DNA of 64,000 nt from an uncultured delta proteobacterium (GTDB lineage Bacteria; Desulfobacterota; Desulfobacteria; Desulfobacterales; SG8-13), in assembly GCA_963848135.1 (NCBI GenBank), contig CAWKCK010000003.1, positions 62,001 through 126,000 of the forward strand, written 5' to 3'. Positions 19,546 through 44,850 of this stretch are shown here, in pieces (position 1 is the first letter of the stretch; the number at the start of each line of letters is the position of its first letter). The notes beneath the pieces are model-generated. The model saw only the letters and a list, made by a program, of their open reading frames with translations, made no database searches and had not been told where the DNA came from. The translations under genes were made by a program, and so were the position numbers.

Positions 19546-19706
19546 GATGGAGTTTTGGAGTGATGGAGTGATGGCGGTAGGAACGGATTGAACGTCCAAC
19601 GCTCAACGTCAAACTTACAAAGTCTAATGAACAACGAAATTGGAGCTATGATAAATAGAGTGGTGGAGTGTTGGAGTACTGGAGTAAAGGTGTAACGTAA
19701 TGGAGT
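19546..19706 (+). repeat. left arm: TGGAGTRN 8-mer repeats plus AACGTCC 7-mer repeats upstream of the four-helix-bundle gene
   Basis: GATGGAGTTTTGGAGTGATGGAGTGATGG; AACGTCCAACGCTCAACGTC; GAGTGGTGGAGTGTTGGAGTACTGGAGTAA. Confidence 0.85.
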
Positions 19707-19712
19707 TGTGTA

Positions 19713-20150
19713 ATGATTAGGAAGAATCGGAATCGTGGATACAAAAAATTGACAGTGTGGAATGATGCGATTCATTACTACGTTATAACATGTGAGGTAT
19801 TTCGTCCGTTCCCTTATGATTTGAAGCGCGTCGCTTCACAACAGATAGCCTCGGCTGATTCAGTTCACCGTAATATAGCCGAGGGTTACTGCCGGCGCTC
19901 AATCAAAGAGTACCTCAACTTTTTGAACATTGCCCTTGGTTCATTAGGGGAATCCGTATCGGGCCTTTTCGCTTTTGCAAAATCGAAACAGATATCCAAA
20001 GAACCATTCGAAAAACTGGATTCTCTGGCCTACAAACTCGAAAATGGGCTTTTAAGGCTTGTGGTGAGCCTGGAGAAAAAGCGTGATCGCGGAGGCTGGA
20101 TTGACAGCCTGGTCGTCAAAGAGAGCAATGCAGAGTATGGGAATGATTGA
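19713..20150 (+). CDS. four helix bundle protein (23S rRNA IVP / Avd-like family)
   Basis: GYKKLTVWNDA, SQQIASADSVHRNIAEGYCRRSIKEYLNFLNIALGSLGE. Confidence 0.9.
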   Translation: MIRKNRNRGYKKLTVWNDAIHYYVITCEVFRPFPYDLKRVASQQIASADSVHRNIAEGYCRRSIKEYLNFLNIALGSLGESVSGLFAFAKSKQISKEPFEKLDSLAYKLENGLLRLVVSLEKKRDRGGWIDSLVVKESNAEYGND

Positions 20151-20173
20151 AAACAAATGCGCGCCTGGATTTT

Positions 20174-20207
20174 TCCAATACTCCAGTACTCCATCACTCC
20201 AATACAC
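20174..20207 (+). repeat. right arm: ACTCCA 8-mer repeats, inverted relative to the left arm
   Basis: TACTCCAGTACTCCATCACTCCA is the reverse complement (1 mismatch in 23) of TGGAGTGTTGGAGTACTGGAGTA at ~19664-19686. Confidence 0.88.
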
Positions 20208-20273
20208 TAGTATGCTAATTTCTTTAACGCTTAAGCTTTCCGACGACGTACACAACCAACCAAGGAGCATCTT

Positions 20274-23200
20274 GTGCCCGCCACGATAATTCTAGTGGAC
20301 GACCATCCCGTATTCCGCCAGGGGCTTCGCAACCTGATAGGCAAAGAAAAGGGCCTGATAGTTGTGGGCGAAGCCAACGACGGTCAAATGGCGATCGACC
20401 TGGTACGCCAAAAGTGTCCCGATCTTGCGGTTATGGACATCAATATGCCGCATCTTAACGGGATCGAGGCCACCCGGCAGATCATATCGGAGTGCTCCAC
20501 TACCCGCGTGTTGGCCCTGTCGGTGCATTCCGGCAAACAATTTGTCAGGGACATGATAGAGGCAGGCGCGTCGGGCTACATCCTCAAAGAGAGCATCCCG
20601 GAGGAGATGATTGAAGGCATCCGATCGGTGCTTGCCGGAAATATATATTTAAGCAAATCCATCTCCAGCAAACTGGTTTCAGACTACAAAGCGCTCCTTT
20701 CGGAATCCAGGCCCGAACCCGACGAACGGTCCACACAGATTTTGTACACCAAACTGCACCGACCGCCGATCGCTAACCATGTGATCCCCAGGACACGATT
20801 GATCGAGGTGTTGGCGAATGGTGCGGAAAGTCCTCTGACGTTGATTGTCGCTCCGGCCGGTTACGGCAAAAGCATTCTGGCCAGCCAGTGGCTGGATGTG
20901 GCGGCACTTACCGGTGCCTGGGTGTCGCTGGATAACGGCGACAACGATCTGCGTGTGTTTTTGAGCTATATCATTGAAGCCATCCAAAGCGTGGTTCCAC
21001 AGCAGGAGTTAAAGACGAGGTCATTCTTGGCGGCCCACAAATTGCCGTCCGTGAAGTTGATCAGCCAGCACCTGCTGAACGACCTGGAACAAATACCTGA
21101 CTCCTTTATCCTCGTTCTGGATGATTATCACCATATCCACACCGACTCGATACACGATTTTTTTTCGGAACTGCTGGTGCATCCATCGCCTCACATGCAC
21201 CTGGTGCTGATCACACGGCGGGATCCGCCCCTGCCTTTGACGTCTCTGCGCGCCCGGGGAATGTTGAATCTGATATCCACGAAAGACCTCCGCTTTACCG
21301 TTCAGGAAACAAAATCTTTTTTGGAGCGATTTTTACGCATCGCCATTGCGGACAATACCGCGCAAGTTTTAGAAGAAAAAATGGAAGGCTGGGTGACCGG
21401 TTTGCACCTGGCGGCCCTGTCCATCCGGAACGAAGCCGACCAGGAACGGTTGATCGTCGGGTTGCTGGAGACGAATCAGTACGTGCGAGAATACCTGATC
21501 CAAGAAGTCTTTTCTATTATTCCACCGAAGTTTCGTCGGTATTTCCTGCAAACCGCCATATTGAACCGTTTTTGTGCCCCTATTTGCGAGGCACTGTCCC
21601 TGGATGATTCGGAAGGGCAACAAATGGAAGCGGATGCCAGCGCCCGGGATTTCATCGACTGGCTGATCAAAACGCAAATGTTTGTCATTCCCCTGGATAA
21701 CAGCAACCGCTGGTTTCGTTACCACCACCTGTTTCGAGACCTCTTGCTTGACTTACTAAAACAAAGATACAGCGCTGAGGAAATCGCTGCACTCCAATTA
21801 CGGGCCAGCGAATGGTTTGCTAAGAACGGTCCCATCGAAGAGGCACTTCAGCATGCTATTTCCACTAATGATATACGATACGCTGTGAAGTTGGTAGAGC
21901 GGCAACGCCACAATCTGATGAATCGGGAGGAATGGAGCCGCCTGGAGCTCATGCTGAAAATGCTGCCCCCTGAAGCTCTAAAGAAAAATCCCTTACTGCT
22001 TGCCTCAAGAGCCTTCATCTTTGAACATCGTGGTCAAGTGGCTGAATCATTTGCGGATCGGGATCGGGCTGAGAGCTTACTGTCTGCACTTCAGCCCGAG
22101 TCGCCCGAGCAAAAAGAAGTCAAGGGAATGATCGCGGTACTGCATGGTGAGGAACGTATATTATTAGGAGAGGGGGATCGGGCATTGGAATGTGCAGAAC
22201 GGGCATTAAGATTATTGCCTGCAGAGGCTCTCCATATCCGGTCTTATGCTATTGCCGAAAAGGTCCTGTCCTATCAGATTGCTGGCGACATTGGCACCGG
22301 GCTCAAAATCATCAATGAAATATTAAATGCGCGTGCTTTGCTCCCCGGCATTACCCAAGCCAGAATGATGCTCTGGTTCTGTATTGCATATTGGATGGAA
22401 GGGGACCTGAATGGCTTGAAACAACCGGCATTACAGTGCCTGAAACTCGGTGAGCAACACGCGCTGCCGGAATCAATTTGTTTAGGGAGATACTTTCTCG
22501 GAGTCCTTCACTATGTCCGCAATGAGCTGTCCGAAGCCGAACGATATCTGGCAGCAGTAGTTGACGATCCTTTTACAGCCAGGCCACAGTACTTGGTGCA
22601 AAGTGCTTTTGCACTGGCGTGCATCTATACCCCTCATGGCCGCGACGATGAAGCCTCCAATGTTATCGAATCCGTGATCTCGCACGTCATGGAGACCAAT
22701 GACACGCTTGCATTGTCTGTAGCCCGCGCCTTCCAGGTGGAACTGGCCCTCAGACAAAGGAAAATCCCGGAAGCACATCGCCTGAATGAGCATGCAGCCT
22801 ATGATCCATATCCCCCAGTCTGGTTTTTCTACGTGCCCCAATTAACGCCGGTCAAGCTCCTGTTAGCCCAGAACACGTCGGACAGCCTGGAGAAGGCGTT
22901 TACTCTGCTCGATCAGATCGATGGATTTGTTAGGAAAACCAACCGCAAAACCATTCGGATTGATGTGCTGGCATTGCAGGCATTGATCCTCGATGCTCAA
23001 GGCAAGGAACCTGCTGCCATGGAAAGGCTCACCGAATCGCTGGTTCTGGCAAGGCCCGGTGGCTTCATCCGCAACTTTGTTGACATGGGCCCACCGATGG
23101 TCGACCTGCTCAAACGAATGCACAGGCAGAATGTCGCTGTTGACTATATAGAGAACCTCCTGGCCGCTTTTAATGATGATGAACAGGTTGTTGCACCGAA

Positions 23201-23429
23201 CGACCATCCTGTCGCATCTCCCTATCAACCTCTTACCGATCCCATGACCAATAGAGAGTTGGATGTCCTTGAATTGCTGGCGGAAAGATTGCAGAATAAA
23301 GAGATTGCCGACAAGCTTTATGTTTCGCCGGAAACCGTCAAAGGGCATTTAAAAAACATCTACCAGAAGCTCGGCGTCAGCAACCGGCGGCAAGCCGTGG
23401 AAAAGGCCAAGCGGTTGAATGTTATTTAA
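20274..23429 (+). CDS. MalT-like LuxR-family regulator (STAND NTPase + C-terminal LuxR HTH) with N-terminal NarL-type receiver domain
   Basis: VDDHPVFRQG..MDINMP..GASGYILK (REC); TKLHRPP, APAGYGKS, LVLDDYH, EGWVTGL, WFRYHHLF (MalT); MTNRELDVLELLA..NKEIADKLYVSPETVKGHLKNIYQKL; GTG start after AAGGAG. Confidence 0.93.
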   Translation: MPATIILVDDHPVFRQGLRNLIGKEKGLIVVGEANDGQMAIDLVRQKCPDLAVMDINMPHLNGIEATRQIISECSTTRVLALSVHSGKQFVRDMIEAGASGYILKESIPEEMIEGIRSVLAGNIYLSKSISSKLVSDYKALLSESRPEPDERSTQILYTKLHRPPIANHVIPRTRLIEVLANGAESPLTLIVAPAGYGKSILASQWLDVAALTGAWVSLDNGDNDLRVFLSYIIEAIQSVVPQQELKTRSFLAAHKLPSVKLISQHLLNDLEQIPDSFILVLDDYHHIHTDSIHDFFSELLVHPSPHMHLVLITRRDPPLPLTSLRARGMLNLISTKDLRFTVQETKSFLERFLRIAIADNTAQVLEEKMEGWVTGLHLAALSIRNEADQERLIVGLLETNQYVREYLIQEVFSIIPPKFRRYFLQTAILNRFCAPICEALSLDDSEGQQMEADASARDFIDWLIKTQMFVIPLDNSNRWFRYHHLFRDLLLDLLKQRYSAEEIAALQLRASEWFAKNGPIEEALQHAISTNDIRYAVKLVERQRHNLMNREEWSRLELMLKMLPPEALKKNPLLLASRAFIFEHRGQVAESFADRDRAESLLSALQPESPEQKEVKGMIAVLHGEERILLGEGDRALECAERALRLLPAEALHIRSYAIAEKVLSYQIAGDIGTGLKIINEILNARALLPGITQARMMLWFCIAYWMEGDLNGLKQPALQCLKLGEQHALPESICLGRYFLGVLHYVRNELSEAERYLAAVVDDPFTARPQYLVQSAFALACIYTPHGRDDEASNVIESVISHVMETNDTLALSVARAFQVELALRQRKIPEAHRLNEHAAYDPYPPVWFFYVPQLTPVKLLLAQNTSDSLEKAFTLLDQIDGFVRKTNRKTIRIDVLALQALILDAQGKEPAAMERLTESLVLARPGGFIRNFVDMGPPMVDLLKRMHRQNVAVDYIENLLAAFNDDEQVVAPNDHPVASPYQPLTDPMTNRELDVLELLAERLQNKEIADKLYVSPETVKGHLKNIYQKLGVSNRRQAVEKAKRLNVI

Positions 23430-23560
23430 TTCTTCCTCCCACCACACAAATATTCCGAAACCGTTAAATTATCTCACTTTCTGATCCCCGAAATTTAATT
23501 CTTGAAGTTCTATTTACCCTTCGTTCGACTGTGAACGTTCGATCCTCATTGTTGTTTGTT

Positions 23561-23626
23561 CACCCACCCCCCATCCCCCCCATTTTCAACCCTTTTCGGG
23601 GGTCGCTCACACCTATTGATTAAACT
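23561..23626 (+). promoter_or_regulatory. putative activator boxes and -10 element for the downstream operon
   Basis: C-rich boxes CACCCACCCC / ATCCCCCCC / CAACCCTT, an inverted GGGGGTCG, then TAAACT at 23621. Confidence 0.4.
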
Positions 23627-23690
23627 AAAGTCAACATCAATGGATTAGTCGGCTCAATTAAAACCCTGTCAGCAACAGAGATGGTGACTC

Positions 23691-23960
23691 ATGGCTAATA
23701 CGCCACAAACGGGGACACTTCAGTTTGAGAAATCAGGTAAATATCGCATTGAAGTCATAGGGTATTTGGATGATCACTGGTCAGACCGCTTGGCGGGCAT
23801 GCAGATCTCCACTTCCAGTTCGGCAAATGAGTCCACCGTGACGACGCTCATCGGCCATCTGCGTGACCAGGCTCAGCTCAGCGGGGTCTTGAACTCCCTG
23901 TACGATCTCCACCTGCCGCTCCTGCTAGTGGAATTCCTCGAGAAGAATAATGGTGTCTGA
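23691..23960 (+). CDS. small conserved protein typically found beside MalT-like regulators
   Basis: YRIEVIGYLDDHWSDRLAGMQI..TTLIGHLRDQAQLSGVLNSLYDLHLPLLLVE (Y.I.V.G.L...WS / DQA.L.G.L pattern). Confidence 0.8.
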   Translation: MANTPQTGTLQFEKSGKYRIEVIGYLDDHWSDRLAGMQISTSSSANESTVTTLIGHLRDQAQLSGVLNSLYDLHLPLLLVEFLEKNNGV

Positions 23961-24045
23961 GGCCCGCAGGATTCGCTTGAATCATCTTCGTCAAAAACCG
24001 GAGAGCAAACACCGGGAAAGGTTTGCCATAAAGGAGGCGATACAA

Positions 24046-24867
24046 TTGAAGATTCCTATAATCACTGCCCTTGCATTGGCCACGCTAATATGGCTCGGTA
24101 GCACTGTGTTCCCTAACAACCTGCGGGCGGAAGGGAAAAGCACAGAGGACCTGGCCAAGGCCGCTCAGAACCCGGTGGCCGATTTGATCAGCCTGCCGCT
24201 TCAGAACAACACCAACTTCGGTGTCGGGCCGGGCAATGACGTTCAGAACGTGCTCAACATCCAGCCGGTGATTCCTTTCAAACTGGGCGCGAACTGGAAC
24301 CTGATCACCCGCACCATCGCACCGCTGATCTACCAGCCGGAACTCGTGCCGGGAGCCGGCAGCACGTTCGGTCTAGGAGATATCAACACGACCCTGTTTT
24401 TGTCACCCGCCAAGCCGGGCAAATTCGTCTGGGGGGCGGGTCCGGTGTTCTCCTTTCCCACCGCCACCGACGACGTGCTGGGCACCGACAAGTGGAGCGC
24501 CGGTCCCTCGGCCGTGGTGCTGAAGATTCAGGGCCCCTGGGTGGTCGGCGGCCTGGCCAGCAACCTGTGGTCCTTTGCCGGTGACAGCGACCGGGCGGAC
24601 GTCAACCAGTTCCTGTTTCAGTATTTCATCAACTACAACATGGCCGACGGCTGGTACCTTTCGTCGGCGCCGATCATCACCGCCAACTGGGAGGCGGACA
24701 GCGGCAATAAATGGACCATCCCCTTCGGCGGCGGTGCGGGGAAGATCTTCAAGATCGGCAAACAGGCTATGAACGCACAGGTGCAGGCCTTTTACAACGC
24801 GGCCAAGCCGGACGACGGTCCCGACTGGACCCTGCGGTTGCAATTGCAGTTTCTGTTTCCGAAGTGA
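24046..24867 (+). CDS. putative outer-membrane beta-barrel channel (often annotated 'neuromedin U' / transporter)
   Basis: Signal peptide; AQNPVADLISLPLQNN, NIQPVIPF, GLGDIN, C-terminal LQFLFPK; TTG start after AAGGAGG. Confidence 0.8.
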   Translation: MKIPIITALALATLIWLGSTVFPNNLRAEGKSTEDLAKAAQNPVADLISLPLQNNTNFGVGPGNDVQNVLNIQPVIPFKLGANWNLITRTIAPLIYQPELVPGAGSTFGLGDINTTLFLSPAKPGKFVWGAGPVFSFPTATDDVLGTDKWSAGPSAVVLKIQGPWVVGGLASNLWSFAGDSDRADVNQFLFQYFINYNMADGWYLSSAPIITANWEADSGNKWTIPFGGGAGKIFKIGKQAMNAQVQAFYNAAKPDDGPDWTLRLQLQFLFPK

Positions 24868-24884
24868 GGAACGAGTGCAGATAC

Positions 24885-25034
24885 AAGGTTCAGAGGTTCA
24901 GGGTTCAAAGGTTAATATTAAGGATTCTGTCCCTCAAACCAGAACCCGGAACCCTGTATGGTGAAACCGAAACTTGAAACCTCATCAGGCTTCTATCCTT
25001 CAACTCTGAACCCTGAACACTGAACGCAGAACCT
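24885..25034. repeat. intergenic heptamer inverted-repeat element (GGTTCAG)n ... (TGAACCC)n
   Basis: AAGGTTCAGAGGTTCAGGGTTCAAAGG ... CTGAACCCTGAACACTGAACGCAGAACCT, ending just before the RBS. Confidence 0.85.
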
Positions 25035-25057
25035 AACATTAAAAGGAGAGAATTAAA

Positions 25058-25588
25058 ATGAAAGCGATTCGGAACTCGGCGGAAAAATCGCCTCTGTCCA
25101 TAACTCTTTATGCGAGGCTTTGCCTGGTTTTTGCCTGCCTGTTACTTATCGGCTCGCTGGCCATGGGAAGCAGTGCCTATGCCGGGCCGATTGTCTATCC
25201 GGCCAAGGGACAGAGCCAGGATCAGCAAAATAAAGATCAGTGGGAATGTCACCAGTGGGCCGTGAAGCAGACCGGTGTTGACCCGCAGAATCTGGCCGCA
25301 CAGACCAGCTCCGGAGAAGTCTATCAGAGGCACCACAGTGCTCTGGGCGGCGCTGCCAGAGGGTCACTGCTTGGGGTTGTGGGCGGTGCCATCGCCGGAG
25401 ATGCGGGAAAAGGAGCCGCCATCGGCGCCGGCGTGGGTGCCGTGGCCGGTCGGATGCGGGCGCGCCAGGATGTGGAAATGACGCAACAGGTGAATGCCAA
25501 CGCGGCTGCTGAGCAACAGGCTCAATTACACGAGTATGATCGCGCATATGGAGCTTGTCTGGAGGGACGGGGCTATACCGTCAAGTAA
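25058..25588 (+). CDS. glycine-zipper domain exported protein
   Basis: YPAKGQSQDQQNKDQWECHQWA; GGAARG..GAIAGDAGKGAAIGAGVG; YDRAYGACLEGRGYTVK. Confidence 0.85.
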   Translation: MKAIRNSAEKSPLSITLYARLCLVFACLLLIGSLAMGSSAYAGPIVYPAKGQSQDQQNKDQWECHQWAVKQTGVDPQNLAAQTSSGEVYQRHHSALGGAARGSLLGVVGGAIAGDAGKGAAIGAGVGAVAGRMRARQDVEMTQQVNANAAAEQQAQLHEYDRAYGACLEGRGYTVK

Positions 25589-25648
25589 CGAAATACGGCG
25601 TTTAATCACCGGAGGAATAAGAAAAGTTTTTTTCACGTTTTTGTTCCT

Positions 25649-25676
25649 TGAACCCGGAACATTGAACCCAGAACCA
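25649..25676 (+). repeat. heptamer repeat arm (TGAACCC-type x4)
   Basis: TGAACCC GGAACAT TGAACCC AGAACCA just upstream of the RBS. Confidence 0.75.
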
Positions 25677-25696
25677 TAAAATAAAAGGAAACAGAT

Positions 25697-27206
25697 GTGA
25701 AAACGAAATCACTATTTGTTATTGCTGCGGCGGGACTCTTGGCTGGGTGGGCCTTGTTTGGCTTAGCACCACAGGTCAGTGCATCCGAAAATAACGTAAC
25801 CGTTCAAGAAAGCTATCTGGGTAGACTTGAATACCAGGGCCAGTCAATTACCAAAAAGACAGCAGAACTTTTACACCGACAGATTCTTTTGCAGCGCGCC
25901 ACCCAGCTGGTATCGTGGGCGATGCCGATGATGAATTTCGAGCAGCTATATCCGGCGCTTCATGCCAACCTGAAAACCTCTAACGCCATGGATGTCTCGG
26001 AGGAGGATATCTTCTTTGGCCTGTATGACGGATATGACGGCGTTTATCCGTTCATGACAGCTAACGTTACGACACCATACACCATCGGGTTCTCGGATTT
26101 GTCGCAAACCGGACCAATTGTGGTCGATCTGCCTCCCGGTGCGATCTACGGCGTGGTGGACAACGCGTGGATGCAGCCCATTCACGAGATCGACGGCAAG
26201 CCGGGGAAACTATTGCTGGTGGGGCCGGGACAAAAATATCCCAAGGATTTCGACGGCAAAATTATCCAGTCCGACACGTTCCGGGTGTTCTACTTCTACC
26301 GCGCACTTGGCACCGGCGATGAGGCCAAAAAGCTAAGGACCGCAGTTCAGGCCTACAAGCTGTCGGACGCTGCCAAGCCACCGAAAACCAAATTCGTCAA
26401 ATATGAGCCGAAGCCGGGCGACAAGATCGCGCTCAATACCCAGCCGCGCGACATGCAGTTCTGGGAACTGGTGAACATCTATGTTCAGCGTGAACCCATG
26501 GCTGACCGTGATCGGTTCTTCTATGCGTGGCTGAAAGACTTGGGCATCGAAAAAGGTAAGCCGTTCAAGCCAACCGACCATCAAAAAGAAATATTGCAAG
26601 CGGGTTTGGACGTGGGCATGGCCATGTCCCAGGCCATCTCTTTCAATAAAACCCGCAATATGTTCCCAACGTCTCTCTATGGAAAGGATTCCGGATTTGA
26701 AGATGCCATGGCAGGGATGAACCCGAAAATTGATCTTGAAACCTACTCTATGTTCAACGAGCGGGCATCCTACGGTTTTGAAGCGACCACCACGTCGGCC
26801 GGTATGGTGTCGCGTGTTCCCGGCAAAGGGTCTGCTTATCTGGGCAGCTTATTACGATGCCGACGGTAATGCGCTCATGGGCGGCAACAACTACAAGCTC
26901 CACCTGGAGCCCAACCCGCCGGCGGCCAACTTCTGGTCCATCACAGTCTATGACATCGAGAACCGCCTGATTATCCGAAATAAAATCAAACGGTCTGACC
27001 GTTCATCCCGTACAAAAGGGCTGATCAAGAACGCCGACGGCTCGGTTGACATGTACTTCGGGCCAAAGGCGCCTGAAGGCAAAGAGGTGAACTGGATTCA
27101 GACCAATGAAGGCCAGTCTTTCTTTGTCTATCTGAGACTGTACGGCCCCGAGAAGGCCTATTTTGACCAGACCTTCCCTATGAATAAGATAGAGAAAATC
27201 AAATAA
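25697..27206 (+). CDS. DUF1254/DUF1214 periplasmic protein, copy 1 (frameshift ~26845)
   Basis: Signal peptide; TANVTTPY..DLSQTGPIVVDLPP; LGIEKGKPFKP; joins ORF 26730..27206 (NFWSITVYD, NADGSVDMYFGPKAPEG..NWIQT, LRLYGP). Confidence 0.88.
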
Positions 27207-27218
27207 AGGAGGGTCTAA

Positions 27219-28779
27219 ATGAAAACAAAGCAATTATTCACCCTGGCTTTGGTCGGGATCATGTCCACCTGCCTGGCGACAGTCTCCTGGGCTGCATCGT
27301 CTCAGGTGAAAATGATCACCCAAAAACCTGAAATGAAAATGACCACGCCGATTCCGGAGAACATCACCACGCCGGCTAAAGTCGAGACACCGATCGGCAC
27401 CCTGGAGTTCTTCGACGGTATCCCCATCGGCAACACCAAAGATGTCGTCTATGACTATATGGACCGGGCGCGGGCCGTGCAGGTTTTCGTCGACACGATC
27501 CCGGCGGTGTCCACCTACAGTCTGCGTCAGGGCAGCCTGGACATGGGAGCAGGCAACAGCAACCAGATCCTGATCTGGGAGCAGCTGGGGGACTCCAAAT
27601 CTCTGGTGCTGACCTATAACAACACCTCGCTCTACACCTGGGGTTTTCTGGATCTGGAGAAAGACGGCCCCACCGTGGTTGAGGTCCCGCCGGATGTGTT
27701 GGGTGTATTCGATGATGGTTACATGCGCTACCTGAGCGACTTCGGCGCGGCGGGTCCGGACAAGGGCAAGGGCGGCAAGTATCTGGTCCTGCCGCCGGGC
27801 TACAAGGGCGAGATACCGTACGGGTTACTTCGTCGTCAAGTCCACCAGCAACGTGGTCTGGAACTTCATGCGCGGCTATGTGCGGGGCAGTGTGCAGGAC
27901 CCCGCCAATGTCAAGAAGTCCGCCGACAATATCGTGAACCATCTCAGGGTCTATCCGCTGGCGAAGAAGGACAATCCGCCGAAGACCGAGTTCATCAATA
28001 TGACCGGGAAGTACTACAACACGATCCCGCCGAACGACTTCAGTTACTTCGAACGACTCAACGAGATCGTCCAGAAAGAGCCGATCAGTTTCATCGAGCC
28101 TGAAACCCGCGGCCTGATTGCCGCCATCGGCATCGTCAAGGGTAAGCCCTTCAATCCGGATGCGCGGATGAAGAAACTGCTCAGCGAAGCCGTAGCCATC
28201 GGCAATGCCTATGCCAGGGCTAATACCGTGTTCCCGCGTGATCCCGGGCAGCGTATCTACGGCCCGGACAGCGAGTGGGTCATGGCCTTCCCGGAAAGGA
28301 ATGCCTTCTTCCTGAAAGACGGCGCCCGCCGCTACGATGCGCGCCTGTGGATGCACTACAACGCCGTGGTCGTCACACCCGCCATGGCCGGTATCAAACC
28401 AGGTATTGGTTCTGATTACGGTATCGCCGGAATGGATTCGAAACACCAGCCGCTGGACGGTGCAAAGACCTACAAGTTGCACCTGCCGCCCAATATCCCG
28501 GTAAAGGACAACTGGTCGGTGACCATCTACGACACCCAGACCCGTTCCATGATGCAGACCGATCAGGCATCCGCCGGTATCAATAGCCTGGGCGAGGGCA
28601 TCAAGAAAAATGCCGACGGCTCTATCGACATCTACTTCTCCCCCAAAGCGGAGAAAGGTAAGAACTGGATCCAGACCATTCCCGGCAAGAGCTGGTTCAT
28701 CATCCTGCGGATGTACGGCCCACTGGAACCATGGCTGGACAAGACCTGGAGGCCGAGTGAGCTCGAGTTGGTGGAGTGA
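27219..28779 (+). CDS. DUF1254/DUF1214 periplasmic protein, copy 2 (frameshift ~27820)
   Basis: LTYNNTSLY, GPDKGKGGKYLVLPPGYKG; continues in ORF 27853..28779 (NWSVTIYDTQTRS, NWIQTIPGKSWF). Confidence 0.88.
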
Positions 28780-28800
28780 GAAATGGGGTTAAAAATGAAA

Positions 28801-28930
28801 TGGAGTACTGGAGTTATGGAGTAATGTGAAAAAAGAAGACATGGAACGTTCGGTATTGGTCGTTCTTACCCCATACTCCAACACTCCACTACTCCATCAA
28901 GTTTGAACCCTGAACCCTGAACCGTGAACC
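28801..28930. repeat. empty TGGAGT/ACTCCA inverted-repeat element followed by TGAACCC x4
   Basis: TGGAGTACTGGAGTTATGGAGTAA..CATACTCCAACACTCCACTACTCCATC, then TGAACCCTGAACCCTGAACCGTGAACC. Confidence 0.88.
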
Positions 28931-28951
28931 ATACGCAGAAAGAGAACTAAA

Positions 28952-30469
28952 ATGAAGACAAAAAGCTTATCACTGGCTCTGGCCGTATTGCTCGCCACCT
29001 GCCTGGCAACTATAGCCTGGGCTGCACCGCCCAAAATGAAAATGACCACCGACATCCCGGCGGGAATCGCAACACCGGATAAACTGGAGACGCGGCTCGG
29101 CACGCTGACTTCGTTCGACGGAGTGCCGGATGCGGCAACGGCCCAGAAGGTCTACGACAACCTCGACTTTCAGCGGGCCACCCAGGCGTATCTGAATAGC
29201 ATTCAGATCGCCTCCATGAATGGCATGCGCGAAGGAATTCTCAAATGGGGGCCCGCCAACTACACCGCGCTGCTCTTCGAAGACCTCATGGATTCGAAAA
29301 CGCTGTTCCTGACACCGAATACCACCTCGATTTACCAACTGTTGTGGCTCGATCTGTCGGAAGGACCGATGGTCATCGAGACGCCTCCCAACGTGATCGG
29401 CCTCGTTGATGACGCCTGGTTCCACTATGTGTGTGACTTCGGCCAGGTCGGCCCGGACAAGAACAAGGGCGGCAAGTTCCTGTTCCTGCCCCCCGGCTAC
29501 AAAGGCGACGTGCCGGACGGCTATTTCGTGCAGAAGCCGCAGACCTTCGGCAACTGGGTGATCTGGCGCGGCTCCCAAGTCGATGGCAGCACCGCTCCGG
29601 CCATCAATGCCACCAAGGAGAAGCTGCGTGTCTACCCGCTGGCGAAGAAGGACAACCCGCCGAAGATGACCTTCATCAATGTCTCGGGTAAGCCCTTCAA
29701 CACCATCCATGCGATGGACGCGCACATCTTCGATGAGATCAACAGCGTCGTTCAGCGCGAGCCCGGCGATGGGCAGGATCCGGAGATTCTCGGCCAATTG
29801 GCATTCATCGGCATCAAGAAGGGACAGCCCTTCAAACCCGACGCACGGATGAAGAAAATTCTCGAAGATGCCGCCAATGTAGCTGCGGTGACGGTGCGCG
29901 CCCTGGCTTCACGCCCGCGTGACAAGGAGTTCTATTACTACCCGGGTGAGGGAGTGTGGACCACGCCCTTTATCGGTGGCAGTTATCTGTTCCTCGACAA
30001 GAACAACGCCCGTTACCTCGATGCACGCGCCTACTTCCACTTCTACGCGACGGGGATTACCCCTGCAATGACTCAGGCACCGTACGGCAAAGGTTCGGTG
30101 TATGCCGTGGCCTATATGGATCATACGGGTAACCCGCTCGTTGGTGACAAGACTTACAAGGTGCATGTGGCGCCGAATGTGCCGATGGAATCCTTCTGGT
30201 CGTTTACGTTGTATGACAACCAGACCCGCTCGGAACTGCAGACGGATCAGCAGTTCCCTGGTATCGACAGCAACAAAAAGGATCTGGTGAAGAATGCCGA
30301 TGGTTCCTATGACATCTACTTCGGTTTCAAAGCGCCTAAAGGCAAGGAGGCCAACTGGCTCCAAACCGTTCCCGGTAAAGGCTGGAACATGCTGTGGCGT
30401 ATCTATGGTCCGAACAAGGCCTGGTATGACAGGAGCTGGAAGATTGGTGATCCTGAGATGGTGAAGTAA
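28952..30469 (+). CDS. DUF1254/DUF1214 periplasmic protein, copy 3 (intact)
   Basis: 505 aa; signal peptide; LTPNTTSIY, GPDKNKGGKFLFLPPGY, FWSFTLYDNQTRS, NWLQTVPGKGW. Confidence 0.92.
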   Translation: MKTKSLSLALAVLLATCLATIAWAAPPKMKMTTDIPAGIATPDKLETRLGTLTSFDGVPDAATAQKVYDNLDFQRATQAYLNSIQIASMNGMREGILKWGPANYTALLFEDLMDSKTLFLTPNTTSIYQLLWLDLSEGPMVIETPPNVIGLVDDAWFHYVCDFGQVGPDKNKGGKFLFLPPGYKGDVPDGYFVQKPQTFGNWVIWRGSQVDGSTAPAINATKEKLRVYPLAKKDNPPKMTFINVSGKPFNTIHAMDAHIFDEINSVVQREPGDGQDPEILGQLAFIGIKKGQPFKPDARMKKILEDAANVAAVTVRALASRPRDKEFYYYPGEGVWTTPFIGGSYLFLDKNNARYLDARAYFHFYATGITPAMTQAPYGKGSVYAVAYMDHTGNPLVGDKTYKVHVAPNVPMESFWSFTLYDNQTRSELQTDQQFPGIDSNKKDLVKNADGSYDIYFGFKAPKGKEANWLQTVPGKGWNMLWRIYGPNKAWYDRSWKIGDPEMVK

Positions 30470-30481
30470 AGAGAAAAAGAC

Positions 30482-30546
30482 ATGGAGTGATGGAGTAAAG
30501 AAGTAATGGGTTTAAAAGATTCGTTTTTCCAATACTCCAATACTCT
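30482..30546. repeat. empty TGGAGT/ACTCCA inverted-repeat element
   Basis: ATGGAGTGATGGAGTAAAGAAGTAATGG..TTCCAATACTCCAATACTCT. Confidence 0.8.
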
Positions 30547-30573
30547 AAACCTAAATAATTAGGAATATGCAAA

Positions 30574-32111: not shown

Positions 32112-32116
32112 AGATA

Positions 32117-32219: not shown

Positions 32220-32242
32220 TAATCCTTAAAAGGGGGCCTAAA

Positions 32243-33731: not shown

Positions 33732-33742
33732 AGCGAAAAAGA

Positions 33743-33873
33743 ATGGAGTGATGGAGTAATAAGGATAAAGAAATGGAGCGGTGGAGTGATGGAGTAATGT
33801 GAAAAAAGAAGACATGGAGCGCTCAGTATTGGTCGTTGTTACCCATACTCCAACATTCCAATACTCCAGTACC
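33743..33873. repeat. empty TGGAGT/ACTCCA inverted-repeat element sharing its core with 28817-28888
   Basis: TGGAGTAATGTGAAAAAAGAAGACATGG..TATTGGTCGTT..ACCCATACTCCAACA is nearly identical to the 28.8 kb copy. Confidence 0.88.
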
Positions 33874-33900
33874 CTAAACCTTTAGAGGAGGTACACTCAC

Positions 33901-34710: not shown

Positions 34711-34991
34711 AGATCTTTAAAATATTAGGAATCATTGTGATTGCCGGGATCGTGATGACTTTCGGATCCGAGATTGGAGAGCGGTTTTCCATTCCGGAGG
34801 CGCAGCGTCTGGTGCCGACGGCCGAAGCCAGAGTCGGGCGTCCGCTGACTCCGGTGAGCGTTGCCGGGGTGGCACGGCGCACAGTGCGGCGTTGCGCGGT
34901 GGGCGTGTACAACTGCAGTCTTCCCGGACCCAGGTCTGTGGACAGCCTGTTGGGGCAGACGAGCCTTGAGCCGATTCGCTTTCCCGGTTAA
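34707..34991 (+). CDS. small exported hypothetical protein (AEARVGRPLTPVSVAGVARRT family)
   Basis: RBS AAGGAG; 4-bp overlap with the DUF2092 stop; hydrophobic N-terminus. Confidence 0.7.
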   Translation: MKIFKILGIIVIAGIVMTFGSEIGERFSIPEAQRLVPTAEARVGRPLTPVSVAGVARRTVRRCAVGVYNCSLPGPRSVDSLLGQTSLEPIRFPG

Positions 34992-35134
34992 AAAATCAGG
35001 AGTTCAAAAAAATGGAGAAAGAATAAAATCGTTATCTGGAATGGGATTTGAACGACAACCCCGTATTTGACGACCTGAGCTTCAGCGGGCCGTATGGTGG
35101 GGTCAAGTTCTACTTTAATTAGGAGAAAGACCTT

Positions 35135-38514: not shown

Positions 38515-38524
38515 CGATAAGTAG

Positions 38525-40165: not shown

Positions 40166-40166
40166 A

Positions 40167-40259
40167 ATGTCCGAACCGCGGACAACCCTCGCACCGATCC
40201 CGGTCACCGTTGTGGCCGGGTTTCTCGGGGCGGGCAAGACCGCGGCGATCCATATATAG
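40167..40259 (+). pseudogene. N-terminal remnant of a COG0523 GTPase
   Basis: MSEPRTTLAPIPVTVVAGFLGAGKT, followed by a stop five codons later. Confidence 0.8.
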
Positions 40260-40309: not shown

Positions 40310-40344
40310 AATATCCAATAACCAACAAGGAATAACCAATGATC
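40310..40344 (+). repeat. heptamer repeat arm (AATAACC-type x5)
   Basis: AATATCC AATAACC AACAAGG AATAACC AATGATC. Confidence 0.7.
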
Positions 40345-41325
40345 AAGGAAAGCGCATACGACTTGCAAGGCCCTATCCCGATCACGGTAATAGCCGGGTT
40401 TTTAGGGGCGGGCAAAACCACCCTGGTCAACCACATCCTGAAAGGCGATCATGGTCTTCGTATTGCGGTGGTAGTCAATGATTTTGGCTCTATCAATATC
40501 GACGCCGAGCTGATCACCGATGTGGGCGAGGGCATGGTCAGCCTGGCCAACGGCTGCATCTGCTGCGTGATCCGCAGCGACTTGATCAGCGCGGTGTTGC
40601 AGCTGGCGGATCGTCCCGAACCTCCCGATCACATCGTCATCGAGTCGAGCGGCGTGGCCGATCCGGCCAGCGTGGTCAGGACGTTCATGGACCCGATGAT
40701 CTGGGGCACGGTCCTGCTCGATGGGGTGATCACCGTCGTCGATGCCGAATGGCTTCCCTCATGTAACGACGACGAAGTGGATCTGGCGCGGCAGATCGCC
40801 GGTAGCGACCTGGTCGTTCTGAACAAGACCGATCTGGTTGATCCCGCGGGTCTCGTGGCGTCTCGAGAACGAATCCTCAAGGCCAGACCAGGCGTCGCGA
40901 TCCTCGAGGCCGACCACTGTCGTCTGCCCATCGAGGTCCTCCTCGGAGTCCACAGCAATGACCCGGAAGGACCGGGTCCGGCGTCGTCTGACGGCCACCA
41001 CCACGATCACGGTCTCGCCTTCGAGACCTGGACCTACACGTCGCCAGAACCGCTCCGCCTGGGTCTGCTGCAGCAGCTGCTGCAGAACCTCCCGCCGACC
41101 TTGCTCCGTGCCAAAGGTTTCGTCTACGCAGCCGACAAACCGCACCAGCGCACCTTGCTCCAGCTCGTCGGCCGGCGAGCGACCCTGGCGGTGAAGGGTT
41201 CGTGGAACGGGCAGCCGCCGCAGACTCAGCTGGTCTTCATCGCCAGAAACGACAGCTGCAATTTTCATGCAATCGGGGCGGCCTTGGACTGCTGCCGCGC
41301 AGAGAGAGGGTGCTCAGGAGTTTGA
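40339..41325 (+). CDS. COG0523/CobW-family metallochaperone GTPase, copy 2
   Basis: GFLGAGKTT, VNDFG, ANGCICC, ESSGVADP, NKTD, HHHDH, LRAKG. Confidence 0.92.
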   Translation: MIKESAYDLQGPIPITVIAGFLGAGKTTLVNHILKGDHGLRIAVVVNDFGSINIDAELITDVGEGMVSLANGCICCVIRSDLISAVLQLADRPEPPDHIVIESSGVADPASVVRTFMDPMIWGTVLLDGVITVVDAEWLPSCNDDEVDLARQIAGSDLVVLNKTDLVDPAGLVASRERILKARPGVAILEADHCRLPIEVLLGVHSNDPEGPGPASSDGHHHDHGLAFETWTYTSPEPLRLGLLQQLLQNLPPTLLRAKGFVYAADKPHQRTLLQLVGRRATLAVKGSWNGQPPQTQLVFIARNDSCNFHAIGAALDCCRAERGCSGV

Positions 41326-42713: not shown

Positions 42714-42747
42714 CCAACAATCAGAAGCAAGGAGACACGGATTAACA

Positions 42748-43095: not shown

Positions 43096-43169
43096 GGATG
43101 TAACTCGAATGGGTTACATCCGAGGGAGGGATGAGACCTCGGCAACAACAATGAACGGGGAGGTAAAAA

Positions 43170-44405
43170 ATGAGCATACTGAAGAATGACCCGATCTATG
43201 AATTCAAAGATGGCGATTACAGCAAACCTCGACACATCATCTTGGCAGGAAGCTATGAGGAAATCGGTTTCGATCTCGCGACCATCGCAAAAAACGACTA
43301 TGACTGCGAGTTGGGGATCTATGACGACCCGATTTATGGGAAAGCTCGTAAAACATACATGGAAATGCACTGGCCGGAGATGGCGGAACGGGCAAAAGGT
43401 GTCCGAAGGGCATATGGTCTATCAGAAGACGATGTGGTCTATGACTCGAACACCCTGGCCTACGATTGGTATGATGCGGCAAAGAGCGGAACTTCAGCTG
43501 ACCTGACTACCTGCTCTGCAGCCATGTTGCCCGTCGAAAAAAGTGATGGTGGCGTCTATGTCTCCAGGAACTATGACATGATGGCCATGGTCATGTGGAG
43601 CGAAGTATTTGGAAAGAAAGCCCCGGAAGGTTCCTATCGGTTTGCTGAACGTTATCTTGTGCTGGAGACTCGGCCGGACAAGGGATACAAGAGTATCCAA
43701 ATTGGAGGCAACGAAGCGCTGCACCCTTATGTGGATGGCATCAATGAAAAAGGGCTCTATGTGACCGTGTTTCACGATCCGGATTCAATCGGGAATGAAG
43801 GCACTCCGACCTCAGGGATGAAAATCGCAGGACTCCCGCTGACGCAGGTGCCCACCTTGCTGCTGGACACGTGTGCCTCCGTCGAGGAGGCCAAGCTGAA
43901 TATTCTTGCGAATCACGTCATGCAGACGATGATGCGCGTGCATCTGTTGATTGCGGACGCCAGCGGAAATGCCACCGTCTTTGAATTGAGTAATCAAGGA
44001 GAGTATTGTTTTACCGACCGTAAAGCCAATGAGCCGCTCTTTGTCACCAATCATGAGCTGGTAAAGTATCCTGACCCGGGTTCCTATCCTGAATTTGATA
44101 TTCATGCGGAGCACAATACCTATGCCCGGCAATTGATTCTCAGGGATGCCTATGCCGGACTTAGCGCACCGTTCAAAAAAGAAGACGTCACGGCGATGAC
44201 TGACTCGGTGCACTGTTCTTTTGTGGATACCAAGAAAGCCGAATCCGGCCCGCTGGAACGAACCTTGAGTAATTGTACCTGTGATCTTAGCAAACCTGAA
44301 CTGAGTGTTCGCTGGTATTTAGGTGATGTAAAACTCATCCCCGGAACCAACCATATGGAAGACAGAATGTCTGACTTCTATTCGTTTGGATTTGACGATG
44401 AATAA
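43170..44405 (+). CDS. C45-family (acyl-CoA:6-APA acyltransferase-like) Ntn hydrolase
   Basis: Candidate nucleophile Cys in LTTCSAA, SRNYD, DGINEKGL, LLDTCASVEEA, HLLIADASG, VTNH. Confidence 0.88.
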   Translation: MSILKNDPIYEFKDGDYSKPRHIILAGSYEEIGFDLATIAKNDYDCELGIYDDPIYGKARKTYMEMHWPEMAERAKGVRRAYGLSEDDVVYDSNTLAYDWYDAAKSGTSADLTTCSAAMLPVEKSDGGVYVSRNYDMMAMVMWSEVFGKKAPEGSYRFAERYLVLETRPDKGYKSIQIGGNEALHPYVDGINEKGLYVTVFHDPDSIGNEGTPTSGMKIAGLPLTQVPTLLLDTCASVEEAKLNILANHVMQTMMRVHLLIADASGNATVFELSNQGEYCFTDRKANEPLFVTNHELVKYPDPGSYPEFDIHAEHNTYARQLILRDAYAGLSAPFKKEDVTAMTDSVHCSFVDTKKAESGPLERTLSNCTCDLSKPELSVRWYLGDVKLIPGTNHMEDRMSDFYSFGFDDE

Positions 44406-44444
44406 TGCTTTCTAAGTAGCTGGATAATCATAGTCTGCTCTCGA

Positions 44445-44570
44445 GGCGGCATGGCCGGTGTCCTGATCTATGACAAAAATCCAATTGAAGATGTGGCGAT
44501 TGTGGAAGACCATGAAAACCACCTGAAGCTCATCTTCAAAGACGGGAAGGTCTTCAAGAACACGCTGTAA
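44445..44570 (+). pseudogene. second amidohydrolase C-terminal remnant
   Basis: GGMAGVLIYDKNPIEDVAIVEDHENHLKLIFKDGKVFKNTL*, paralogous to ~42970-43095. Confidence 0.8.
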
Positions 44571-44578
44571 GGGCTCTG

Positions 44579-44850
44579 GGTTCCCGGTTCAGAGGTTGAA
44601 GGATTAAAAAAGATCAACCTGTGCGGTTAGCGATTAGCGTTTAGCCATTAGGATTGAGAATGAATAGAGAACTTAATCAACAGGTGAACGAGGTAAAGAG
44701 GATGTTGAACAGTTTTATCCAAAAGCTAACCGCTAATGGCTAAAAGCTAACCGCACAGGTCGAAAAAGGCGCAAGGTTTCCGGTTCAAGGATAGGAACTA
44801 TTTTTTAATACCTCTAAACCCCAGAACCCTGAACGCTGAACCCTGAACCT
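44579..44850. repeat. nested heptamer inverted-repeat elements (outer GGTTCAG/TGAACCC, inner TTAGCG/GCTAA)
   Basis: Perfect 15-bp IR ACCTGTGCGGTTAGC (44617) / GCTAACCGCACAGGT (44746) inside GGTTCAGAGGTTGAAGG..GAACCCTGAACGCTGAACCCTGAACC. Confidence 0.88.
44660..44743 (+). pseudogene. internally deleted four-helix-bundle gene relic
   Basis: MNRELNQQVNEVKRMLNSFIQKLTANG* resembles the final helix (EV.EVKRML.SFIQKL) of four helix bundle proteins. Confidence 0.7.

Follow-up and report, generated by a model that had tools for sequence, protein, structure and literature searches.

Inverted arrays of 7- and 8-nt units around PF05635 four-helix-bundle genes: a probable cluster of intervening-sequence-like cassettes between protein-coding genes

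The 64,000-nt stretch of DNA analysed here (the window) contains an island of intergenic elements that unites a PF05635 gene, a hairpin like those of rRNA intervening sequences (IVS) and heptamer arrays, present as a full cassette, a decaying cassette and numerous arrays without a gene. Genes and arrays occur together in this genome and across phyla. We interpret the island as probably a group of IVS-like hairpin cassettes located outside rRNA, together with relatives that lack the gene; they would be selfish and near-neutral inserts rather than regulators of the host. The rest of the genome and its relatives add a match between gene and unit family, a co-occurrence of gene and arrays at the level of whole genomes, and a junction that is found empty, filled, swapped or eroded.

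Tandem Repeats Finder (TRF) was run over the whole window, and all arrays of period 7 or 8 with at least 2.8 copies were found to lie within 19545-44849. An earlier sequence-only reading had listed about ten elements of one architecture in this region. The observation is confirmed. Nine of the ten carry clear 7/8-nt tandem arrays and seven of these nine have inverted arms; its weaker points are a marginal array at 40310 and a set of AACGTCC units which are direct. Counted by kind, the window has a single full unit at 19545-20205, a decayed unit at 44571-44850 that is nested inside a second hairpin, and some seven further hairpins or single arms without a gene; all features are given on the forward strand. 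The elements begin 6-20 nt past a stop codon and, as had been claimed, usually end shortly before the next RBS, finishing 22-35 nt ahead of the next start codon and leaving the RBS free. RNA folding of six elements gave z-scores from -2.6 to -6.9 against dinucleotide shuffles. An Rfam scan of 15000-47500 returned no rRNA and nothing else of relevance, and the flanks of the full cassette are protein-coding genes and not a 23S rRNA helix.

The full unit starts with a compound array after the stop codon of a histidine-kinase gene (19526), where two direct blocks of AACGTCC-type units, identified by reading the sequence (19528-19541 and 19586-19616), flank a distal 5' arm with 3.8 copies of TGGAGTNN (19545-19574, TRF). 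This region (19528-19616) is kept in the genomes G006 and G011. The proximal 5' arm of the same unit (19658-19700, TRF and sequence reading) places a GGAG in its last unit, 8 nt upstream of the ATG of the four-helix-bundle gene, and the 3' arm consists of four copies of NNACTCCA (20174-20205, TRF). Orthologous cassettes have a longer 3' arm, at 10323-10404 in G006 and 958-1021 in G011. In the arm alignment, 27 of 31 positions are Watson-Crick pairs.

Besides the three arrays of the full unit (19545, 19658 and 20174), TRF placed TGGAGTNN/ACTCCA arrays at 28799, 28875, 33743 and 33845, whereas GGTTCAG/CTGAACC arrays were placed at 24886, 25002, 28904 and 44820. The first of the ORF-less hairpins (24886-25033) pairs a GGTTCAG arm at 24886-24913 with a CTGAACC arm at 25002-25033 (TRF; fold -45.3 kcal/mol, z -3.07). 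A lone A/C-rich arm of the TGAACCC type (25648-25674) stands 22 nt before the next start codon; TRF reports it solely as a period-14 row of 1.9 copies, and its 7-nt units were recognized by reading and a lag scan. Contigs of two RNA libraries bridge this arm, a weak signal, and the libraries may also contain DNA. The element at 28799-28930 (TRF; fold z -5.02) comprises an ORF-less TGGAGT/ACTCCA hairpin at 28799-28896 and, immediately after it, a lone TGAACCC arm at 28904-28930, and is an example of abutting arrays of different units (28875-28930). A short ORF-less TGGAGT/ACTCCA hairpin lies at 30483-30545 (TRF; fold z -5.18), its 3' arm at 30528 having merely 2.2 copies in TRF, and an ORF-less hairpin of GGTGTCA and TGACACC-TGAAACC units spans 32117-32219 (TRF, as GGTGTCA/TGACACC; fold z -4.14). 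The ORF-less TGGAGT/ACTCCA hairpin at 33743-33872 (TRF; fold z -2.59) duplicates the 28.8k element, loop included, with 88% identity over 103 nt by alignment and blastn. The genes that flank these two elements are paralogs, apparently diverged ones. An AATAACC array at 40310-40340 abuts the CobW start codon; with 70% matches and a TRF score of 34, it was considered marginal and was not counted as a member of the family.

In the nested element (44571-44850; TRF, inner fold z -6.89), outer arms of GGTTCAG (about 44571-44602) and CTGAACC (44820-44849) enclose inner arms of GGTTAGC (44623-44655) and GCTAACC (44721-44766), for which TRF reports arrays at 44623 and 44721. When eight window elements were compared with the genome by blastn, just one pair was related beyond the unit. 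A search for remnants of the IVP cassette in the loops of the gene-less TGGAGT hairpins at 28.8k and 33.8k revealed no likeness to the inside of the full cassette, the scores being no higher than those of shuffled sequences (128 and 281 of 300 shuffles, respectively, reach them).

The four-helix-bundle gene (19713-20150) is intact and bracketed by the arms of the full unit, as the sequence-only reading had recognized. Its product of 145 aa matches PF05635 (E 7.8e-18, 65.1 bits against a cut-off of 33.8) and TIGR02436 (E 2e-18, 66.6 bits against a cut-off of 24); the structures matched by sequence are 2GSC, the pentameric XCC0516 (E 1.6e-7), and 2RLD (E 1.6e-3). The protein is under purifying selection, with a pN/pS of 0.077 against G011 and a second value against G011 of 0.054. 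Between G000 and G011, the ORF is identical at 391 of 438 positions and the 5' arm plus leader at 175 of 178, the flanking coding DNA having about 93% identity. Contigs from two DNA and two RNA metagenome runs were compared with 19000-35000, a picture dominated by paralogs and related organisms. One DNA contig of 671 nt covers exactly 19539-20205 at 92% identity, and its two ends possibly result from assembly breaking inside the arms.

The relic that had been noticed in another copy was also recovered. It comprises 27 C-terminal codons of a four-helix-bundle gene (44660-44740), corresponding to the last helix and positioned directly before the inner 3' arm. With a custom IVP profile of 122 positions built from 96 IVP proteins, it was found at profile positions 97-119 with E 0.011, ranking second among 1769 six-frame peptides of the window; Pfam gave no match to the 27-residue relic up to E 1.

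Arrays of 7/8-nt units flank all five PF05635 loci in this genome, with a separate unit for every locus, and within the order 22 of 30 loci in relatives are likewise flanked (counted from a table). Across many phyla, an array was found within 300 nt of 65 of 80 loci, and 26 of the 80 have arrays on both sides; these 80 loci were found with a six-sequence query whose pattern picks one PF05635 protein subfamily, and are therefore not a random sample of PF05635. The background in the repeat-rich host genome is 351 of 4831 crude genes (7.3%) with a nearby array and 14 of 4831 with arrays on both sides, which for the 80 loci against the genes of the host genome gives an enrichment of at least 11-fold for one side and more than 100-fold for both. 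Array density is 2.33 per kb adjoining the gene compared with 0.48 per kb farther away, and 96 of the 110 arrays adjacent to it have period 7. Terminal inverted repeats that form a long stem around the gene are indicated by the arm alignment, by the folds and by related loci, where arm complementarity exceeds the 95th percentile of shuffles in 75 of 93 testable cases. The tie between repeats and PF05635 genes, claimed from the window, is therefore strong and extends beyond this genome. Arrays were also observed to flank one other small gene, an ORF6N gene.

The earlier remark that no such repeats were seen outside the island is correct for the window and fails for the genome, in which 95 period-7 and 44 period-8 arrays were found. 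Among the period-7 arrays, 70 are intergenic and 25 coding, although coding DNA makes up 81.5% of the genome, and distances to start codons are 0-116 nt; such intergenic placement, outside genes and near start codons, is the layout of STRR/TAACTGA-type repeats. The commonest heptamers among the TRF arrays, GAGCTTT (15), GCGGGTT (12) and GGTTCAG (11), form the arms of three of the five PF05635 genes, and the fourth, GGTGTTT (8 arrays), borders the gene in five congeners. Clustering at the gene is seen for two of the 8-nt families: nine of eleven TGGAGT arrays are found in this window, no more than 14 kb from their gene, and ten of twelve loosely assigned AGGAATTN arrays cluster around theirs. 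A separate unit family belongs to each gene copy, and no other families are commoner in the genome. At the genome level, the contrast covers partial samples of seven genomes from one order, three of them gene-bearing (two relatives and this genome). Arrays of at least four copies are rare, near chance level, in the four sampled relatives without a PF05635 match (0, 0, 1 and 0 in 1.28 Mb sampled), whereas in two relatives with PF05635 the counts are 22 for 398 kb and 2 for 322 kb, and this genome has 64 in 6.03 Mb. Many PF05635 matches sit at contig ends. Such arrays break short-read assemblies, and they can extend or replace the stop codons of neighbouring genes, which matters for annotation.

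Sites are filled, empty, swapped or eroded among congeners, in line with the presence/absence polymorphism that had been expected. The junction between a small gene and mutL was compared in 12 congeners and shows empty sites, two cassette types and one deletion relic. It is empty in G005 and G014, where the genes overlap in TAATG, and in G013, which has a 25-nt spacer. A GCGGGTT cassette occupies it in G000, G002 and G003, with its deletion relic in G001, and a GGTGTTT cassette with a different protein occurs in G004, G006, G007, G008 and G015; no target duplication is visible at this junction. The G006 site orthologous to 44571-44850 has kept the outer arms and lost the inner 5' arm and the relic. 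The copy number of the arms also varies fast among relatives, and the elements turn over quickly. The cassettes carry no transposase, as had been proposed. No transposase, integrase or target-site duplication turned up, nor was any insertion event observed, and mobility is proposed from comparison only. None of the four Y1_Tnp matches in the genome, two of which are fragments, adjoins an IVP locus; one of the fragments is about 4 kb from the array cluster at C5:685-692k.

The sequence-only reading had suggested that the hairpins tune a long envelope operon. Their stems could have been selected as processing sites, attenuators or translation controls for the DUF1254/DUF1214 and neighbouring genes, with the four-helix-bundle protein as a trans-acting binder of the stems. 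The precise placement between stop codon and RBS agrees with such control, as does the unusual conservation of the 5' arm and leader, and the GGAG of the TGGAGT unit could mask the RBS of the enclosed gene; translational control has been proposed by MacGregor for the TAACTGA repeats, according to the available part of the paper (PMC4679880). However, the homologous DUF1254/DUF1214 paralog junctions in congeners have no arrays but plain spacers of 70-150 nt, and one and the same junction is empty, filled or differently filled in close relatives. In the stems, G·U and A·C mismatches are about as frequent (168 against 153 at 75 loci; 6 against 7 in the window); as G·U is not above A·C, nothing points to selection on the sense RNA, and the mismatch pattern fits a DNA-level or very young structure as well. 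A/C-rich arrays do precede start codons on the sense strand in 34 cases against 10, but for paired arms the order of the arms alone produces this bias. The shared polarity noted earlier is seen in that order, with 16 G/T-first and 3 A/C-first among 24 pairs, although the GAGCTTT family of the genome is reversed relative to the others; since paired-arm polarity is identical after strand reversal, it is uninformative on transcription. Arrays occur at similar rates in co-directional (53/3287), divergent (10/763) and convergent spacers (8/763), which gives no indication that operon junctions are preferred. The data do not support regulation of the host, which we regard as quite improbable. The elements behave instead as fast-changing inserts, presumably selfish and near-neutral, and not as switches for adjacent genes.

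In the interpretation as IVS-like cassettes, a full unit consists of a PF05635 gene enclosed within about 10-20 nt by two inverted 7/8-nt arrays; it follows the stop codon of one gene and precedes the RBS or start codon of the next. The paired arms would allow the insert to fold out of the transcript, where it may be cut by RNase III like rRNA intervening sequences, so that downstream genes could keep functioning; mobility and RNA processing of the cassettes are both predicted. Single arms and gene-less hairpins would derive in part from deletion of full units; deletion is seen in G001 at mutL and in G006 relative to the window at 44.6k. Members of a family have only the unit in common, not loops or ends, and part of them may therefore originate afresh through an activity associated with the cognate gene. 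With one matching pair among eight elements and unrelated loops, neither simple copying of whole elements nor decay of full units explains most arrays.

These features also bear on an explanation in which arrays are not copied as elements but written anew, one unit after another, on a short template and in dependence on the cognate four-helix-bundle protein, possibly where DNA ends or gaps occur between genes, full cassettes being the autonomous source and gene-less arrays the products. Likeness confined to the unit, abutting arrays of different units, one unit family per gene copy, the clustering of the two 8-nt families at their genes, the biased arm order and the near absence of arrays in sampled relatives without the gene would all follow from such writing, and Avd, a relative of the protein, serves a reverse transcriptase as a cofactor. 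Near the five loci, however, neither a polymerase nor a reverse transcriptase was found. PF00078 has four matches, on contigs C1 and C18 and none on the contig of the window, and none within 130 kb of any of the five IVP loci; no reverse-transcriptase domain was found among the window ORFs scanned. Moreover, single arms and empty hairpins are demonstrably made by deletion, the common loop of the 28.8k and 33.8k elements shows that whole elements can be copied, the GAGCTTT family has the reversed arm order, and a seed can be expanded by slippage alone. We consider this explanation unlikely. Ordinary microsatellite slippage of the STRR kind, with four-helix-bundle genes merely chancing into repeat-rich spacers, would account for the rapid change in copy number; heptamer repeats of cyanobacteria and Beggiatoaceae are known without mention of the gene, and 'intervening sequence' and 'four helix' have 0 occurrences in PMC4679880. 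It is already disfavoured, and in our view very improbable, by the enrichment around the gene on one and both sides, its span over many phyla, the inverted symmetry around the gene and the near-chance level of arrays in sampled relatives without it.

The cassette interpretation touches three long-standing questions. PF05635/TIGR02436 is a very widespread family for which we know of no function outside diversity-generating retroelements (DGRs), where rRNA intervening sequences come from and how they spread has, to our knowledge, lacked an answer since about 1990, and intergenic heptamer arrays have been catalogued for decades without any explanation that we are aware of. A wider reading, tentative and on balance rather unlikely, is that most of the heptamer arrays found between bacterial genes stem from PF05635 cassettes as their autonomous source, each ring protein recognizing its own 7/8-nt unit and promoting the seeding or spread of arrays of that unit, preferentially near its own gene. 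If true, a single mechanism would account at once for how rRNA intervening sequences arose, for what the very large Avd-related family does and for the heptamers of cyanobacteria and giant sulfur bacteria.

Among known systems, MITEs and REP/BIME elements are likewise small, non-coding, palindromic intergenic inserts, often gene-less derivatives of a coding parent. Unlike MITEs, the family members described here have no conserved interior or ends by blastn and no target duplication was seen; unlike REP/BIME, their arms are tandem 7/8-nt units and not a single palindrome of 20-40 nt, and no Y1/RAYT gene is associated with them. The Avd accessory protein of DGRs, a pentameric, nucleic-acid-binding four-helix-bundle ring, belongs to the same PF05635 protein family, and the link to DGRs suggested earlier holds at that level only, as none of the five loci of the genome has an adjacent reverse transcriptase.

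Heptamers repeated in short tandem in cyanobacteria are known as STRR. They and the TAACTGA repeats of Beggiatoaceae (PMC4679880) resemble the present arrays in being intergenic 7-nt tandem arrays that often end right before a start codon and are oriented to the downstream gene, with other heptamers mixed in, a patchy phylogenetic distribution and an unexplained origin. They were described as direct repeats, with only one inverted set among 170, and without a link to PF05635, whereas most of the present arrays are inverted pairs tied to a gene family, and their units are others, namely GGTTCAG, GCGGGTT, GAGCTTT, GGTGTTT and TGGAGTNN. PF05635-type genes have been reported inside cas loci (18 genes; Zhang et al., PMC3936711) and in 16S and 23S insertions of CPR bacteria (preprint 10.1101/2024.02.27.582315), the available portions of both mentioning no repeats. 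In the literature searched, no paper was found connecting PF05635 genes with heptamer arrays outside rRNA, and in the accessible text of the sources, heptamer repeats with this gene type were found for the Coxiella rRNA IVS only.

The 23S rRNA IVS share with the window elements an S23p/PF05635 ORF in the loop of a stem formed by terminal inverted repeats, tandem heptamers in the 5' arm with strain-variable copy number, the lack of a transposase, a sporadic distribution and ORFs prone to decay. They are located in helix 25 or 45, and those of Leptospira reportedly bear an ORF, as Ralph and McClelland are said to have described in 1993. The likeness proposed in the sequence-only reading is borne out by Coxiella burnetii, where, in the available part of PMC4990558, the helix 45 IVS has tandem GACAGAT heptamers before S23p and a 28-bp stem within which RNase III cuts. 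Such cleavage is shown for the IVS, whereas for the window elements it is presumed. Unlike the IVS, the window elements lie between protein-coding genes and are accompanied by many gene-less hairpins and single arms and by genome-wide unit families.

The long ORFs between 15.7 and 47 kb of the window all lie on the + strand. They comprise a sensor kinase gene, a 145-aa PF05635 gene (19713-20150), a response-regulator/LuxR/MalT-type regulator gene, a glycine-zipper protein gene, five DUF1254/DUF1214 paralogs and, among others, DUF2092, CobW and amidohydrolase genes. When the entire window was scanned with Tandem Repeats Finder (TRF), all period-7/8 arrays of at least 2.8 copies fell within 19545-44849, and reading of the spacer sequences confirmed the list of about ten elements drawn up in the sequence-only reading. 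Seven of these are inverted arm pairs; the other three are single A/C-rich arms (25648 and 28904) or weak (40310). Folded as RNA, six elements gave energies of -23.8 to -50.4 kcal/mol (z -2.6 to -6.9) with 'beaded' stems, in which 5-7 bp are paired per unit and the variable unit positions are unpaired. The elements start 6-20 nt past a stop codon and end 22-35 nt ahead of the next start, which leaves the RBS outside, and none matched an Rfam family. The hairpins at 28.8k and 33.8k share 88% identity across 103 nt that include the loop, and their flanking genes are diverged paralogs; if, as assumed, these paralogs differ from each other far more than the hairpins do, copying of the hairpin postdates the divergence of the paralogs.

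Of the five DUF1254/DUF1214 paralogs, four are broken into two overlapping frames (25697-27206, 27219-28779, 30574-32111 and 32126-33731). In contigs from other metagenomes, a G is added after 31706 in all four runs and a base is missing at 32651 in two DNA runs. Two of the frames break at these positions, and the breaks may thus be strain-specific or due to misassembly. A 30-codon frame at 40166-40258, with a P-loop-like start resembling the N-terminus of a CobW-type GTPase, runs into a stop codon shortly before the real CobW gene (40339-41325); it has no Pfam match and may be left over from duplication of a gene start.

The gene at 19713-20150 clearly belongs to PF05635/TIGR02436, as proposed for the intact four-helix-bundle gene between the arms, and its product is related in sequence to the pentameric XCC0516 structure. 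Compared with its counterpart in the relative G011, the ORF shows a pS of 0.384 and a pN of 0.030 (pN/pS 0.077), indicating that the protein is maintained. Between the two genomes, the non-coding 5' arm and leader match at 175 of 178 positions, above the neighbouring coding DNA (ORF 391/438, kinase 3' end 287/309, regulator 5' end 836/900), so this non-coding part is either constrained or recently exchanged. The suggested relic of a second such gene was recovered in the inner hairpin at 44623-44766, where 27 codons match the last helix of the family (profile positions 97-119 of 122; E 0.011, ranked second among 1769 six-frame peptides) with a custom profile built from 96 members, and gave no match with Pfam alone. 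At the orthologous site in G006 the outer GGTTCAG/CTGAACC arms are kept and the inner 5' arm and relic are gone, so the two genomes present two decay stages of one nested cassette.

The arrays are genuinely and generally associated with four-helix-bundle genes. A PF05635 gene was found in 25 of the 31 genomes of the order, the genome under study included, often at contig ends, and arrays lie directly beside the ORF at 22 of 30 loci taken from the order. A six-sequence alignment used to query one genome of each species returned 80 loci spread over many phyla, among them Acidobacteriota, Planctomycetota, Bacteroidota, Patescibacteria, Firmicutes, Proteobacteria, Nitrospirota and Chloroflexota, although this query represents a single peptide pattern and thus samples one subfamily. 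The proposed tie between repeats and gene family holds across these loci: an array lies within 300 nt of the gene at 65 of the 80 and on both sides at 26, compared with 351 (7.3%) on at least one side and 14 (0.29%) on both for all 4831 crude genes of the repeat-rich genome under study. Array density is 2.33 per kb adjoining the ORF versus 0.48 per kb farther out, period 7 accounts for 96 of 110 ORF-adjacent arrays, and the median array-ORF distance is 13 nt upstream and 18 nt downstream. Arm complementarity exceeded the 95th percentile of shuffled controls at 75 of 93 loci (median score 42 versus 18 shuffled), the 93 being what remained of 110 after excluding the own-genome locus L013 and 16 with no recognisable ORF, short flanks or N.

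Within the genome under study (6.03 Mb, ~50% G+C, 18 contigs), period-7/8 arrays occur genome-wide, clustered in several regions, so the absence of such elements outside the island, noted in the sequence-only reading, holds for the window only. A lag scan (at least 3 copies, at least 80% self-identity) found 70 intergenic and 25 coding arrays of period 7, 31 and 13 of period 8, and 12 and 24 of period 9, in a genome with a coding fraction of 81.5% by crude ORF calls. Arrays flank all five PF05635 loci (seven matches), with a different unit at each: TGGAGTNN in the window (which spans C3:62001-126000), GGTTCAG at C2:547.7k, GCGGGTT at C3:618.4k, GAGCTTT at C18:726k and an AGGAATT-like 8-mer at C4:212k. 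The three most frequent heptamers in the TRF output (GAGCTTT 15, GCGGGTT 12, GGTTCAG 11) are all PF05635-flanking units, and the fourth, GGTGTTT (8), flanks a PF05635 gene in five congeners. At a looser threshold, 133 of 309 arrays were assigned, loosely in the case of 8-mers, to seven unit families taken from the gene-flanking arms, the congeners' GGTGTTT and the remaining window units. Nine of the 11 TGGAGT arrays lie inside the window, within 14 kb of their cognate gene.

Two of the five four-helix-bundle genes of this genome are each interrupted by a small gene of the GIY-YIG type (PF01541, E ~2e-15 for both), at L139:2389-2640 (C18 ~726.4 kb, - strand) and L140:4125-4409 (C4 ~212.1 kb, + strand). 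Both inserts interrupt the conserved NIAEG motif at one position, between its A and E codons, BLASTP shows no likeness between the two GIY-YIG proteins, and a similarly split copy occurs in G008:C15; the GIY-YIG gene looks like a homing-type insert targeting this gene family. Arrays also accompany other cargo: a 1-kb insert at C5 ~345.5-346.5 kb (L137:1480-2520), which G014 lacks, its flanks being 25 nt apart, encodes an ORF6N-domain gene (PF10543, E 3e-37) with A/C-rich heptamer arrays before it and a GGTTCAG/CTGAACC hairpin after it. Dispersed repeats of ~100-275 nt, unrelated to the heptamer arrays, have many copies in this genome and its congeners at ~75-93% identity (L134:6867-7141, C3 ~620.9 kb; L137:2150-2390, 4193-4340 and 8189-8294).

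Array abundance also tracks PF05635 presence, an observation that is suggestive, not conclusive, as it covers seven genomes of one order with partial samples (for relatives, at most 20 contigs, with 20 kb from the start of each; period-7/8 arrays of at least 4 copies). Four genomes with no PF05635 match yielded one array in a joint 1.28 Mb (G016 one; G020, G023 and G030 none). G001 has seven matches and 22 arrays in 398 kb, G019 four and two in 322 kb, and the genome under study 64 arrays in its full length. At a laxer threshold of at least 3 copies G030 gave six minimal, A+T-rich arrays; a shuffled 500 kb control gave two.

The kinase-cassette-regulator arrangement is conserved in G006 and G011, where the 3' arm, of four units in the window, is longer (10323-10404 and 958-1021, respectively). 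Arrays are absent from the DUF1254/DUF1214 paralog spacers of G001, G005, G008 and G015, which are plain and ~70-150 nt long; these paralogs, 45-70% identical in protein, are homologous and not strictly orthologous. The anticipated presence/absence differences among relatives are seen at the junction of a small gene with mutL, which is syntenic across the genus and shows four states in 12 genomes. It is empty in G005 and G014 (stop/start overlap TAATG) and G013 (25 nt); it holds a GCGGGTT cassette with one protein type in G002, G003 and the genome under study, with a 3' arm of 25 units in the last (TRF) and a much shorter one in G002; in G001 a 149-nt deletion relic of this cassette retains only the 5' arm and leader; and a GGTGTTT cassette encoding another protein type occupies it in G004, G006, G007 (broken), G008 and G015. 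Deletion thus produced some gene-less arrays, and fresh seeding is a possible origin of others. No Shine-Dalgarno sequence precedes mutL in the filled sites, where the upstream stop codon may come from the arm or be displaced by it; the stem base would join the old stop and start, a possible route to keeping translational coupling. A 671-nt DNA contig from an independent sediment metagenome spans exactly 19539-20205, arm to arm, at ~92% identity, and stops at both arms; either assembly failed within the repeats or, in that metagenome, the cassette is set in another context.

The shared polarity described for the elements stands as a common arm order: of 24 loci flanked by arrays on each side, 16 have the G/T-rich arm before the A/C-rich one, three the reverse and five alike arms. 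Nine arm pairs of the genome under study place G/T first and four A/C first, all four belonging to the reversed GAGCTTT family. It does not stand as a sign of orientation to transcription, since the order of an inverted repeat is unchanged on the other strand and thus characterises the element family. Arrays whose end is no more than 120 nt from a start codon are more often A/C-rich on the sense strand (34 versus 10), a bias that for paired arms follows from arm order alone, and arrays occupy 1.6% of co-directional, 1.3% of divergent and 1.0% of convergent spacers. An A·C mismatch on the sense strand is a G·U pair on the antisense strand, and selection for folding of the sense RNA should favour G·U; no such excess was seen in the aligned stems (168 G·U versus 153 A·C) or in the window (6 versus 7). 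A host regulatory role, proposed as tuning of an envelope operon, is not supported.

A diversity-generating retroelement was rejected, as no reverse transcriptase occurs on the window's contig or near any of the five PF05635 loci. Classical MITEs or REPs were likewise rejected, since members of one unit family have neither a conserved interior nor conserved ends; no Y1 transposase adjoins the cassette loci, and one fragment lies ~4 kb from the C5 array cluster. We found no published description of extra-ribosomal PF05635 cassettes with heptamer arms or of their gene-less arrays. MacGregor reported TAACTGA arrays ahead of start codons in Beggiatoaceae, cyanobacteria and Bacteroidetes (PMC4679880), and the PF05635 family is not mentioned in the available portion of that study. 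The Coxiella paper (PMC4990558) was the only literature found to join heptameric repeats, an intervening sequence and 23S rRNA. As described in the available part of that paper, the intervening sequence in helix 45 is 428 nt long, carries an S23p ORF within a 28-bp stem of terminal inverted repeats that is cut by RNase III, and has two or three tandem GACAGAT heptamers, variable among strains, ahead of the ORF (PMC4990558). The elements described here act as inserts with fast turnover, probably selfish, that are related to such rRNA intervening sequences.
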